The position numbers were made by a program. DNA of 64,000 nucleotides from a virus (Duplodnaviria; Heunggongvirae; Uroviricota; Caudoviricetes), in the IMG/VR virus record IMGVR_UViG_2684623127_000006. One strand, 5' to 3'. Below are positions 42,001 through 45,000 of the stretch, one piece after another (the stretch's first letter is position 1; each line of letters opens with the position of its first letter).

Positions 42001-45000
42001 CCCCACTGTTAGTCAGGGTGCCCCAGGCGATCGCCGCTGCGACAAAATCATCCACATCTTTCACCAGCCGATCCCTCCGTTCGACGATCTCACGGTAATA
42101 TTCAGAGCTGTGACTGCGCATACGGGCCACCAGCAGAGGCGGCATTGCCTTTTCGATCGCCGGTAACAGAGCCTGCATTTTTTCAACTGCATCAGGGGTG
42201 TCTTTCTCTATCCAGCGGAAAATTTTCTGGGTATTGCGAGCCAGGGCTTCCGGATGGCTGTCGTCGTACAGTTCAGGAAACGTCATACCCAACTCAAAAT
42301 AAGCCTGGGTTATTCCAGCTGCCGGAACTTTTTCGCCATCAGGACGCGCCCAGGCATTCATCGCCATGCGGATGTGTTCATGCTTGATTTTCATGAATCC
42401 CCCCTTGGTTAGAAGGCGGATTATGATCAGAATCGGGAATGACAACCGTCGGTATGTGTAACTCATATTTGAGCGCCCCGGCAGTGACTGCCTGAATTAG
42501 CAACGCCCATTTCCACGGAACGTCTTCCCCCCACATGCTGACTGTGGTTTTTGACGTTCCTAGAGCGGCGGCTGTTTTAACAACTCCGCCAAAATAGCCT
42601 AATACTTCTGATTTTTTCATGAGTCGCTCCATAAAACTGAACGCCAAAAGTTTAATAATCAAAACCAAAGAAAGTCAAGAAACAAAACCATCTGTGTTTT
42701 AAAATCAAAACATGAACAAGCAAACAATATCTGAACGCATAACCCAACGTATGCATGCGCTAAACTTGAAAGGCAAAGACCTTGTCAATGCCACTGGCGC
42801 ATCAAAAGGCTCCGTAAGTCAATGGATGAACGGTGGAGGAGCGCCGTCCTCGCGTTACATAAGTTCACTGGCAAAGATATTGAAAGTAAACGAAAATTGG
42901 CTTCTTAATGGAGGAGAGTTAAATACAGGTGATTCGCTTGATCTATCTTTACCGCCGATAAAAACGGTTCCGCTACTATCACTTCAGCAGGCAGCAAGCT
43001 GGAGTGATTATATGAAAAATTCCTCAATAACCTCTTGTGTGCAGCTTGTCGGAGAAATCCCGGCCAATACCTTTGCTGTTGTTCTAGAGAGTGACAGTAT
43101 GTCGACATCTGGTGGTGGAGTTTCCATCCCAAATGGTTCAACAGTTTTTGTTGATCCCGATCGAATCGTACAACCAGGAAATATTGTCCTTGCCTTACCC
43201 AAAGGGACCACAACGCCTGTCATTCGCAAACTGGAGATAGAAGGGCCGGATATTCTTTTAGTCCCCACGAATCCTCGCTACCCTTCAATTATGCTGGATG
43301 ATCTATCTTGCATATTGGGAGTATGCTTTAAAATTCAACAAGATATTTAACCAACCTCATCTATTTGATTAACTGTATGCCATCGTAGTGATGGCGTAAC
43401 AGCTGCCTGCTTAAAATGTTTTGATAAAAAAACATTGACCTTAAATGTTCGTTTTTCTAAACTTCATTCATTCCCTCACCCCGCCCCACAGAATGCAGGG
43501 CAATACTTCGAGTTACCAGGCAGTGGTCAGGGGTTAAGTAGCCAGCCCGAGGCGTAAGAACATGACGGCAGGGTTCAACTTTAATAACTATGCAGCAGGT
43601 TTTTGTTCCGCTACCCCGGCGTTAAGGGGAAATGAGGTCAACATGGATACGCTCAATCTTGGCAACAACGAATCTCTGGTATGTGGCGTGTTCCCCAACC
43701 AGGACGGTACGTTCACCGCGATGACGTATACCAAAAGCAAAACGTTTAAAACTGAAGCTGGCGCGCGTCGCTGGTTAGCCAGAAACACTGACTGATGAGG
43801 TTGACGATGGAATTTAAAGATTTACCTCCTTCAATCCAGGAGATTGCAGCACACACACTTCGTCATCGTCTGAACGAACTTGAATTGGAATCGGTAACGA
43901 AAAAAGACACTGATAATATGGCTCGTAATGTGCGCGATGCGTTTACCGGATTGTATTTCTGTGCGTCTATAAATAAACACGACTCAGAGAGTGTGGCAAA
44001 TAAAATTGCAGAAACGACAGCGCAAAACATCAATACGAAACCAACGGAAGAAGAAATTGATCAGTTTGCTCATGATGCTGGTTTAAAAAACAAGAAAGAA
44101 AAATCGCCATATGCGGGGAACATGTTTGTTTATGACAATCTCATCAGAATTCGTGGCGAAATTCCGGCGGAATACCTGGCAAGAGTCCATCAGGCATTGC
44201 TTAAAAATTTGGAAACAGAATTATTTGATGGCAACACTAACGGTTTCTTCATGGTATCAGGCCTTGAGAAAGACTGGGATGCAGAAAAACGCTGGAATGT
44301 TGCTACATGGTTATTCAGTAACAGAGCCGCTGCACTGGAAGCTTCGGCATGTATTTGCGGCCTGTTCTTAACAGACCACAAATATAATCTGGATGTGTAC
44401 AGTTATATTTACGCTGAACACGGTCCACTCTGGATTGACTGGTAATTATAAGGAAACACCAGCAGGGCCGCGGCGACCAACAGAACGATTAAAATCAATA
44501 ATGCCATTATAAAGGACATTATTTAATTTATCGTCGAATGCTGATTCTGTGAGCCTCAACTCTGAATGAGTTTTTAATAACCCTGATTGCCTGAGTTGAT
44601 TTACCAGGCATTCAATCTGTTTTTCAATAAGCGGATTTCTTTTTTTGTTTGGCATTTTATCCTCCATTGAGGTTCTGGGTTAAAAATGGAGACCAACACG
44701 CTGTCACGTGTGGTCGTGCGCCGGACACGGATAAGAATCCGGTACTGACAGTTTACTGAAAGGATATTTCCCTGAAAAGTCAGTGCATAACGCGAAAGCG
44801 TACGGCGAAGCTCTTTCCCTTAGAAGGCTTGTCGTTAGATTTCTTCGAACGTGCGCTTCCGGTTGTGGCACTCCGCGAAATGGCGCGGCGGTAAGTATGG
44901 CGGGGTTATTCCTTCCCCATTGAGGACACCGGGTTGTCAGGTTGACCATACGCTTAAGTGACAACCCCGCTGCAACGCCCTCTGTTATCAATTTTCTGGT

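Follow-up and report, generated by a model that had tools for sequence, protein, structure and literature searches.

Prophage defence genes placed on the strand opposite to a lytic operon have been described in different hosts. In the Listeria monocytogenes prophage phi10403S, the TERi module is composed of TerI and anti-TerI1/2 (bioRxiv 10.1101/2025.02.27.640495). The gene for TerI, a protein of 65 aa, runs against the other genes of the early lytic module. It is constitutively transcribed and overlaps the ORF of the cognate anti-TerI2, and the forward partner is expressed on induction only. The conserved promoter region of TerI drives alternative, unrelated small genes between prophages. For TERi, activity against phages, terminase as the target, and binding between the partners were all demonstrated (bioRxiv 10.1101/2025.02.27.640495). 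Similarly, the Tai/Ati genes of phi80 and of other E. coli and Salmonella prophages and satellites are located on opposite strands as a "noncontiguous operon", in which the defence gene is active during lysogeny and its counter-defence partner during the lytic cycle (PMC11364771). Tab of Pseudomonas prophages shares this opposite-strand defence/counter-defence design, as summarised in bioRxiv 10.1101/2025.02.27.640495.

The locus reported herein shares its backbone with the canonical Qin dicBF operon, which has the order ydfA-ydfB-ydfC-dicF-dicB-ydfD (PMC5069750), and carries two convergent genes, ORF212 and ORF69, in the place of ydfB and ydfC. As in the TERi, Tai, and Tab modules, a lytic operon is broken by a small gene on the other strand, which abuts or overlaps a forward lytic gene, and a conserved 5' region is followed by unrelated small genes in different prophages. 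No published work on the ORF212/ORF69 pair was found in the literature searches.

The two-gene cassette in the dicBF early operon

In the window, which is the whole stretch of 64,000 nucleotides analysed here (IMG/VR record IMGVR_UViG_2684623127_000006), the 928-bp segment 43787-44714 is the ORF212/ORF69 cassette of an E. coli O157-type Qin-like prophage. The features are collected in Table 1. Downstream of a cI/DicA-type repressor, ydfA, DicF, dicB, and ydfD follow in the order of a Qin-type dicBF early operon; the Pfam and Rfam matches reproduced the context given in an earlier note on this DNA. Identity to phage Tritos is 92-94% across ydfA, the dicF leader, DicF, dicB, and ydfD. Alignment with the canonical Tritos operon by BLAST placed the break points at 43786/43787 and 44714/44715, and 928 bp in the window correspond to 450 bp with ydfB and ydfC in Tritos. 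Since the Tritos homology ends at 43786 and restarts at 44715, neither YdfB nor YdfC is encoded between ydfA and dicF. The proposed replacement of ydfB-ydfC is thus correct for the window. In another prophage (L003) the same cassette is placed 3' of ydfB and ydfC, and in other prophages it coexists with ydfB and/or ydfC, so the cassette in general is read as an optional unit.

The GC content of the cassette is 40.8% versus 52.7% for the window, which is the 5th percentile among 928-bp windows. The cassette had been called AT-rich relative to its neighbours; this holds against ydfA (50%) and the dicF leader (52%) but not against cI (44%), dicB (38%), and ydfD (42%). Because these genes are equally low, the AT-richness of the cassette is that of the immunity/dicB accessory region as a whole.

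A 292-bp spacer, with a promoter-like site and an abutting operator-like 19-mer, and then ydfA lie between cI and ORF212. The promoter-like site, a consensus match with a PWM score of 11.5, is the top-scoring site within the cI-ydfA spacer and is presumed to be the pL/PdicB-equivalent early promoter. The 19-mer matches two others in the cro/cI intergenic region (42649-42667 and 42695-42713), and the cI-like repressor would bind at this repeat family. Because these elements and ydfA separate ORF212 from cI, ORF212 most likely belongs to the early lytic genes, as the second gene of a repressor-controlled "pL-like" dicB operon. Repressor control of ORF212 is likely, given the promoter-like site and the operator-like repeat upstream. 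With this position, ORF212 would be expected to be silent in lysogens, and within the pair only the reverse gene could be expressed in the lysogeny phase.

These intervening elements also contradict the earlier suggestion that the cassette occupies the rexAB-equivalent position. In the lysogen, rexAB is transcribed together with cI, and RexB is located in the membrane. The cassette is similar to lambda rexAB as accessory cargo beside the immunity repressor of a lambdoid prophage; unlike rexAB, it is separated from the repressor by ydfA and by the promoter-like site with its operator-like repeat, and it has neither a membrane segment nor homology. A rexAB-type exclusion system was rejected on the early promoter-like site in between, the lack of a RexA/RexB match, and the lack of a membrane component.

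Table 1 Features of the cassette and the flanking early operon in the window.
Feature	Position	Strand	Description
cI-like repressor	42712-43350		HTH_3 + Peptidase_S24; P22_Cro
Operator-like 19-mer TGTTTTGATAAAAAAACAT	43417-43435		Abuts -35 of the promoter-like site; repeat family
Promoter-like TTGACC-17-TAAACT	43435-43463	+	Consensus scan and PWM scan; consensus match only
ydfA (DUF1391), early-operon gene 1	43643-43795	+	Pfam PF07151, E 1.2e-29; RefSeq WP_000380316.1
ORF212	43807-44445	+	212 aa; WP_000394548.1; phrog_2151; "Ybl81" in some sources
N-terminal helical module of ~55 aa	43807-43971	+	MEFKDLP..IQE.AA...RNVR..F.GLY; PHROG, HMMER
C-terminal alpha/beta domain	44098-44406	+	beta-beta-alpha-beta-beta-alpha-beta, ferredoxin/ACT-like sandwich; co-varies with ORF69
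ORF69	44446-44655	-	69 aa (MPNKK...); WP_001133037.1; phrog_4274; convergent to ORF212
Reverse-gene 5' region with Shine-Dalgarno	44656-44714	-	Upstream alignment, BLAST
Two-hairpin element	44684-44752	+	Right edge of the slot; 84.5 bits; single copy in the window
DicF sRNA	44994-45045	+	Rfam RF00039, 75 bits, E 8.7e-16
dicB	45220-45408	+	Pfam PF05358, E 2.7e-36; RefSeq annotation
ydfD/DUF1482	45405-45593	+	Pfam PF07358, E 2.9e-15; RefSeq annotation

The forward ORF of 212-216 aa and the convergent 69-aa ORF with a GGAGG site were both reproduced, with starts at 43807 and 44655. From the first ATG, the forward ORF spans 43795-44445 (+, 216 aa). The true start is most likely 43807 (MEFKDLP...), because GAGG is found 6 nt upstream and this is both the RefSeq start and the common start of all homologues. 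The reverse ORF spans 44446-44667 (-, 73 aa) from the first ATG; its real start is 44655, with the Shine-Dalgarno GGAGG 5 nt upstream (plus-strand CCTCC, 44661-44665). The two stop codons abut with a spacer of zero. ORF212 is soluble and acidic (pI 5.2), and ORF69 is small, basic (pI 9.7), soluble, and predicted to be cytoplasmic. No membrane segments were found in ORF212 or ORF69, with maximum 19-residue hydropathy values of 1.16 and 0.22, respectively.

Both proteins match families of unknown function over their full length: ORF212 matches phrog_2151 (E 1.9e-147, 212/212 positions), and ORF69 matches phrog_4274 (E 1.4e-51, 69/69 positions). Neither has a family match in Pfam, NCBIfam, PADLOC, or PDB (sequence), which agrees with the earlier reading of the forward protein. 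Among 5.8 billion proteins, 153 homologues of ORF212 were found, whose source names are nearly all Escherichia plus one Salmonella cluster. The dN/dS is 0.20-0.44 for ORF212 along its full length and 0.20-0.25 for ORF69, which indicates purifying selection. ORF69 carries the conserved motifs IEKQIEC, SGLLK, and GRRGPAG. Both genes are real and under purifying selection.

ORF212 has two parts. Its N-terminal module is common to many early-operon proteins whose C-termini are unrelated. The PHROG matches 1363, 9419, 6937, and 33007 cover only residues 5-79 of ORF212, and in the exhaustive HMMER search about 40 of 50 matches were limited to positions 1 to ~60 or, in a few cases, to 1 to ~90. The module is present in 74 phage records, exists in short stand-alone proteins, and appears as a helical hairpin in the AF2 model (low confidence). 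A scan of a contig collection with one genome per species found a single N-module locus. As the full-length AF2 model was too poor (pLDDT 62), the C-domain was re-modelled separately with the Salmonella homologues. The structure matches of this domain were generic ACT/ferredoxin-like folds only, with no toxin or enzyme signature. The domain has an invariant FDG..NG.F loop.

A polymorphic slot and co-inheritance across two backbones

The suggestion that the slot is a hotspot of variable cargo was borne out by the comparison of its occupancy, in which at least four alternative cassettes with unrelated interiors were found in E. coli. Among 5426 complete E. coli genomes, cassette A (212+69 aa, as in the window) was found in 596, cassette B (112+64 aa) in 152, cassette C (186+~80 aa, with a Zn-ribbon-like motif) in 24, and cassette D (135+77 aa) in 649. 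Together these make 1421/5426, as summed counts and not as a count of distinct genomes. The canonical operon without any reverse gene was found in 2311 genomes. The proteins of cassettes B-D matched only PHROGs of "unknown function" in the Pfam, PHROGs, PADLOC, NCBIfam, and PDB-sequence searches.

The forward N-module is common to cassettes A-D, and the reverse-gene Shine-Dalgarno and start are common to cassettes A-C. A segment of ~60 nt upstream of the reverse gene, together with this Shine-Dalgarno and start, is shared by cassettes A, B, and C and by phiP27, and is missing from the canonical ydfC operon; the identical ATGGAGGATAAAATG opens three unrelated reverse genes. The mosaic junctions fall at conserved sequence, which is the N-module on one side and the Shine-Dalgarno/start plus the two-hairpin element on the other. 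These comparisons show a slot that is polymorphic between conserved flanks.

The C-domain and ORF69 were found together in 74/74 IMG/VR loci, and none of these 74 loci has an ORF69 homologue without an adjacent C-domain. Within E. coli, such co-variation is expected from linkage between the conserved flanks. The pair is also present in Salmonella enterica prophages (L008-L010) and in read-run assemblies (L093-L095). This second backbone has the order of integrase, HTH repressor, Cox, and then the pair, and its forward protein carries a different N-terminal domain. In one homologue (P0177), an Xre-type HTH is inserted between the N-domain and the C-domain. The identity between E. coli and the second backbone is 30% for the C-domain and 52% for ORF69; the Salmonella ORF69 homologue aligns over all 69 residues without gaps (E 4e-25). 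The length and motifs of the pair are kept between E. coli and Salmonella. The 3' ends abut in the window, whereas homologous and alternative cassettes show an overlap of 11-53 bp. These loci show the C-domain and ORF69 inherited as a unit across two prophage backbones, and it is the comparison with the second backbone, over few lineages, that argues for functional coupling.

A possible defence pair and the alternatives

A defence-type function of the pair is the leading hypothesis. We tentatively propose, at somewhat less than even chances, that ORF69 is a small effector of the lysogeny phase and is neutralised early in the lytic cycle by ORF212. The cassette would be a self-contained two-gene "noncontiguous operon", in which the reverse gene interrupts a repressor-controlled early lytic operon and the two antagonistic products are expressed in opposite phases. 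In the lysogen, where the early promoter is repressed, a separate leftward transcript would supply ORF69, which would interfere with incoming or competing phages. Induction would bring immediate synthesis of ORF212, encoded second in the early operon. The ACT/ferredoxin-like C-domain of ORF212 would bind and neutralise ORF69 as self-immunity, and early transcripts running head-on across the abutting 3' ends would in addition stop the production of ORF69. The N-terminal module of ~55 residues would be a scaffold common to all forward proteins of the slot. Here we infer the expression timing, the physical interaction, the identity of the effector, and the anti-phage activity.

The convergent layout, the co-inheritance, the polymorphic slot, the early-operon position, the TERi/Tai precedent, the complementary charge, the absence of membrane segments, and purifying selection speak in favour of this model. 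The lack of a significant ORF69 promoter, the absence of the cassette from deposited phages, and a possible reversal of roles count against it. No convincing sigma-70 promoter for ORF69 was found in consensus and PWM scans upstream: the top-scoring site overlaps the start codon and is unusable, and the best usable candidate scored 9.4, versus a mean of 7.5 and a 95th percentile of 10.3 for the shuffled maximum. The cassette was found in 0/50,697 deposited phage genomes.

Similar to TERi, the 69-aa reverse gene meets or overlaps a forward gene of the early operon, this forward gene stands behind a promoter-like site flanked by an operator-like repeat, and a Shine-Dalgarno/5' region is shared by three unrelated reverse genes. 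Unlike TERi, the host belongs to another phylum, and the forward proteins share a fused N-terminal module that does not figure in the TERi description. The likeness to Tai includes the host range (E. coli/Salmonella) and a reverse gene interrupting a lytic operon; the Tai of phi80, which is directed at tail assembly, is in the Q-controlled late operon, whereas the cassette is in the early operon. The identification of the pair as the Tai of E. coli prophages was rejected on this other location and on the lack of a sequence match. Neither ORF69 nor the ORF212 C-domain had a tblastn match at E<=1 among 50,697 phage records, and no homology to TerI/anti-TerI, Tai/Ati, or Tab emerged from this search or from PADLOC. 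Since neither sequence nor fold connects the pair to these systems, they are parallel in architecture only. A type II toxin-antitoxin system was also rejected, as the genes are convergent and have no Pfam, NCBIfam, or PDB match.

If the defence/neutraliser model is true, the opposite-strand defence/self-immunity design of TERi, Tai, and Tab would extend to a new site, the early operon of very common E. coli/Salmonella prophages including O157:H7. The variability of the dicBF operon between ydfA and dicF would be explained, and four non-homologous cassettes would be directly clonable and testable. It is conceivable, though rather unlikely, that the ydfA-dicF interval of Qin-like prophages and the post-cox position of the second backbone form an unrecognised hotspot of small anti-phage effectors in Enterobacteria, with early-lytic neutralisers built on the shared N-terminal scaffold. 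ORF69 and the reverse proteins of cassettes B-D would then be new defence proteins with new targets, with one such system in about a quarter of E. coli genomes. Even without a defence function, the conservation across backbones points to a functional two-protein unit of no known family, and lambdoid early proteins have the unexplained design of a shared N-module joined to swappable C-domains.

With the roles reversed, ORF212 would be an effector of the early lytic phase that acts through its C-domain to harm or reprogram the host, as the operon neighbours DicF, DicB, and YdfD do, and ORF69 a constitutive neutraliser guarding the lysogen from leaky expression. This is an unlikely reading, although the pairing, the convergence, and the polymorphism fit it as well. 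Since inducing the dicBF operon is very toxic (PMC5069750), protection against leaky expression is a plausible function. The slot shows the hallmark of polymorphic toxin/immunity loci, namely a conserved N-terminal module followed by a variable C-terminal domain and, next to it, a small gene that also varies, and the layout resembles pore-forming colicin operons. In these, the immunity gene is reportedly constitutive and lies beyond the repressed toxin gene on the other strand. However, a secretion/trafficking domain, a recognisable toxin domain, and a membrane immunity protein are all absent here, and the C-domain matches generic folds only. Immunity genes of polymorphic toxins are normally co-directional, and those of pore-forming colicins encode membrane proteins, while ORF69 has no hydrophobic segment. 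A phage would also gain little from immunity to its own cytoplasmic early protein.

It is about equally improbable that the two genes are unrelated neighbours, co-inherited only by adjacency between conserved recombination anchors, with ORF212 as an early accessory protein (host takeover or anti-defence) and ORF69 as an independent moron. The mosaic junctions exactly at conserved sequences would agree with this, as would the short stand-alone N-module proteins and the N-module protein of the Stx2a phage Lyz12581Vzw, for which no convincing convergent partner was found. However, adjacency, orientation, and 3' overlap are kept at 30%/52% identity in a different backbone, the arrangement survives a swap of the forward N-terminal domain, and 74/74 ORF69 loci have the C-domain.

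A regulatory pair acting in lysis-lysogeny or operon control is more doubtful still. The leftward ORF69 unit could brake the toxic dicF-dicB-ydfD genes downstream by transcriptional interference or antisense, or the proteins could be small antirepressor-like or CII-like regulators. The pair is always among the first genes behind the immunity switch, following ydfA in the Qin type and cox in the second backbone, where phage 186 carries cII; the Xre-type HTH of P0177 and the small, basic, predicted cytoplasmic ORF69 are also in line with regulation. Yet a DNA-binding domain is missing from ORF212 and from most homologues, a mere brake would not require a conserved 69-aa protein under purifying selection, and the canonical operon works without a reverse gene in 2311 genomes.

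That the genes are decaying, functionless remnants of a defective prophage, as the truncated recE, the integrase fragment, the IS elements that follow, and the absence from deposited phage genomes might suggest, is very improbable, since both frames are intact in hundreds of genomes with dN/dS 0.14-0.25, and length and motifs are conserved from E. coli to Salmonella.

The right edge of the slot and the state of the prophage

The two-hairpin element recurs in Tritos, phiP27, an Stx2a phage, and the Salmonella loci. Its hairpin 1 varies with compensatory changes, and its hairpin 2 (CCGGA-12 nt-TCCGG) is almost invariant. An assignment as the put antiterminator RNA of HK022 (putL/putR) was unsupported, as the HK022 immunity region (24000-34000) gave no match to a degenerate pattern or to the covariance model R1, which is largely sequence-driven. 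A conserved leader peptide across the element was rejected because its start codon is not kept in Tritos. The G-U pairs of the element favour the + (early-transcript) strand.

The window prophage has lost the 3' end of recE, its integrase is reduced to a fragment, and IS elements follow. With recE and integrase lost in this way, self-immunity would be moot in this particular prophage.

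Gene layout beside the immunity switch

The window is a lambdoid prophage of the E. coli O157:H7 type; strain TR01 and many O157 and O121 genomes carry the stretch 43400-45700 at 100% identity. ORF212 (forward, 212 aa) and ORF69 (convergent, 69 aa) are real genes, forming a conserved, uncharacterised convergent pair in a polymorphic slot, the ydfA-dicF interval of a putative early operon. The coordinates, the 216/212-aa and 73/69-aa frames, the convergence and the GGAGG ribosome-binding site described in the earlier note were all reproduced, and the two stop codons abut with zero spacer.

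Features of the locus (window coordinates unless a locus is named)
Feature	Position	Strand	Remark
19-mer, TGTTTTAAAATCAAAACAT type	42649-42667		palindromic; between cro and cI
19-mer, TGTTTTAAAATCAAAACAT type	42695-42713		palindromic; between cro and cI
cI-like repressor	42712-43350		HTH_3 + Peptidase_S24; divergent from P22-Cro-like gene
cI-ydfA spacer			292 bp
19-mer, TGTTTTAAAATCAAAACAT type	43417-43435		palindromic; abuts -35 of ydfA operon
Promoter-like site	43435-43463		TTGACC-17-TAAACT
ydfA/DUF1391	43643-43795	+	
ORF212	43807-44445	+	
ORF69	44446-44655	-	
Two-hairpin element	44684-44752	+	conserved; right edge of slot
Two-hairpin copies	L002 3730-3798, L092 2531-2599, L006 2942-3010, L008 5832-5900, L009 5824-5891, L093 6072-6140		
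Leader 5' of DicF			~340 nt, untranslated
DicF	44994-45045	+	Rfam 75 bits
dicB, ydfD, truncated recE, integrase fragment, IS elements			3' of DicF, in this order

The site had been equated with the rexAB position, and the layout contradicts this. Of the promoter-like sites in the region, the best lies between cI and ydfA, and the 19-mer next to it shares a repeat family with the pair between cro and cI; all three probably serve as operators for this immunity type. From this arrangement we infer repressor control, with ydfA-ORF212-...-dicB as a repressor-controlled early operon, equivalent to pL/PdicB. ORF212 would therefore be an early lytic gene and not a passenger of the cI transcript. RefSeq annotates the TR01 repressor as its C-terminal 113 residues only (5613-5951 of the TR01 locus, window 43012-43350), whereas the window's frame is intact from 42712 (212 aa, HTH and S24).

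Alternative cassettes in the slot

Break points were defined against the canonical operon of phage Tritos (ydfA-ydfB-ydfC-DicF-dicB-ydfD). Homology to Tritos stops at 43786 and restarts at 44715, so the cassette was delimited as 43787-44714, with 928 bp between the break points versus 450 bp in Tritos. The replacement of ydfB/ydfC proposed earlier is seen in the window relative to Tritos, but it is not strict, since three other prophages (L003, L004, L005) carry the cassette together with ydfB and/or ydfC; the cassette is therefore an optional insertion. Its AT-richness is likewise real but not cassette-specific: GC is 40.8% (whole window, 52.7%), below ydfA (50%) and the dicF leader (52%), while cI (44%), dicB (38%) and ydfD (42%) are similarly low.

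Comparison of slot occupancy across Qin-like prophages identified at least four alternative cassettes in E. coli, all immediately upstream of the dicF leader.

Slot occupancy in complete E. coli genomes (n=5426)
Type	Products	Example	Genomes
A	212 + 69 aa (forward + reverse)	this window	596
B	112 + 64 aa	L073 (IMG/VR contig)	152
C	186 + ~80 aa, CxxC...CxxH motif	ETEC4073	24
D	135 + 77 aa	PPompW prophages, phage Evi	649
Canonical	ydfB-ydfC	Tritos	2311

The forward proteins of every cassette type share the N-module, the first ~55 residues of ORF212 (MEFKDLP..IQE.AA...RNVR..F.GLY; predicted helical hairpin), which opens many early-operon proteins with unrelated C-termini. The Shine-Dalgarno/start ATGGAGGATAAAATG and ~60 nt upstream are common to the type A-C reverse genes and the short phiP27 reverse gene. 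The cassette interiors are mutually unrelated, and searches gave none of them a functional assignment. Type A was absent from 50,697 deposited phage genomes at the DNA and protein levels. A 147-aa protein that begins with the N-module (54% identity) is found in the Stx2a phage Lyz12581Vzw (L006 2501-2944) and in some 30 further Stx2a phages; the two-hairpin element lies 3' of its gene, without a convincing convergent partner.

Conserved pairing and candidate functions

Neither protein matched Pfam, NCBIfam, PADLOC or PDB sequences, in agreement with the earlier impression that ORF212 has no recognisable family. Each falls in a PHROG of unknown function, and neither was found in any paper by literature search. 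Homologues are scarce (153 matches for ORF212 and 36 for ORF69 among 5.8 billion proteins; with an HMMER profile run exhaustively over 1.84 billion representatives, only 50 for ORF212), and the named sources are nearly all Escherichia, plus one Salmonella cluster for each protein. ORF212 is acidic (pI 5.2) and ORF69 basic (pI 9.7), and neither has a hydrophobic segment. Residues ~98-200 of ORF212 form an alpha/beta C-domain, whose few remote relatives (about 206-286 aa) were found only in Salmonella enterica and read-run assemblies.

An ORF69 relative was accompanied by the C-domain and N-module in all 74 IMG/VR loci, with nearly fixed spacing (identical in 71). The remote C-domain relatives are encoded in a second prophage backbone, ordered integrase(-), HTH repressor(-), Cox(+), then the relative's own gene(+; 217-286 aa) and, convergent to it, a gene for 64-69 aa that overlaps it by 11-53 bp at the 3' end. 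The small protein is clearly homologous to ORF69 (52% identity over 69 ungapped residues, E 4e-25) and keeps the motifs IEKQIEC, SGLLK and GRRGPAG. The forward protein's N-terminal domain is swapped between the backbones, and the C-domain, ORF69 and the tail-to-tail layout are retained together. Downstream of the pair in one Salmonella element, a few genes away, is a P1/P7-type C4 antisense RNA (L009 7582-7669; Rfam 76.8 bits); the related loci L010 and L094 have a 'Derepression' (PF25738) gene in the vicinity.

In its architecture the pair is analogous to a type of prophage defence/self-immunity module that was described recently. In TERi of Listeria phi10403S, the 65-aa TerI is constitutive in lysogens and stops DNA packaging of invading phages, and its neutraliser is encoded by an overlapping early gene (bioRxiv 10.1101/2025.02.27.640495). 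Here as in Listeria, a small opposite-strand gene within a lytic operon, here a putative one, is tail-to-tail with, and abuts or overlaps, a forward lytic gene, and unrelated small genes alternate behind a conserved 5' region. The phi80 Tai/Ati system is a noncontiguous operon (PMC11364771); Tai sits in the late operon, whereas the cassette would belong to an early one. No sequence relationship to TERi or Tai/Ati was found, and the likeness, as an analogy, is one of logic, not family.

Our preferred reading is tentative. ORF69 would act in lysogeny as a small effector, ORF212 would neutralise its cognate ORF69 through the C-domain in the early lytic phase, and early transcription running head-on would help to turn ORF69 off. 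Its weakest point is that no candidate ORF69 promoter stands out upstream in promoter scans. It is unlikely that the roles are the other way round, so that the early gene would encode a toxic effector and its partner a constitutively made immunity protein, on the model of colicin operons. Functional coupling is supported mainly by the retention of C-domain, ORF69 and arrangement despite exchange of the N-terminal domain, and it is improbable that the two are unrelated neighbours linked by position alone. The 286-aa C-domain relative P0177 (L093/L094 5001-5861) carries an Xre-type HTH between its N-terminal domain and C-domain (Pfam HTH_3, E 8e-6), a hint that part of the family binds DNA; a regulatory role or a transcriptional brake on dicF-dicB is considered quite improbable. 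Both genes are under purifying selection (dN/dS 0.14-0.19 for the ORF212 C-domain, 0.20-0.25 for ORF69), and remnants without function are very improbable. The pair, with any anti-phage activity it may have, is open to simple cloning and phage challenge.

Right edge of the slot and the downstream region

The two-hairpin element was found in canonical Qin-like operons, all cassette types, phiP27, the Stx2a phage and Salmonella elements. In hairpin 1 the sequence varies and the pairing is preserved (for example CCCAAC/GTTGGG, CTCCAC/GTGGAG, CCCGA/TCGGG); hairpin 2 (CCGGA-12 nt-TCCGG) hardly varies, and G-U pairs favour the early-transcript strand. The element might act in antitermination ahead of the DicF terminator, as a processing site or as an anchor for recombination. 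The element was compared with HK022 put, and no match was obtained.

Part of the dicF leader (44786-44979) is kept at 76-81% identity in four second-backbone loci (L009, L010, L093, L094), and Rfam detected no DicF in L008 or L009, so the leader may have a function of its own. Across the DicF-dicB spacer (45043-45252, +), Rfam matched the Salmonella sRNA STnc100 below threshold (34.7 bits, E 6e-5; gathering score 47). The prophage is decayed at 45686-47463 and beyond, where recE is cut short (414-aa frame), only a C-terminal piece of the integrase is left, and an IS256-family remnant split by ISEc8 follows.
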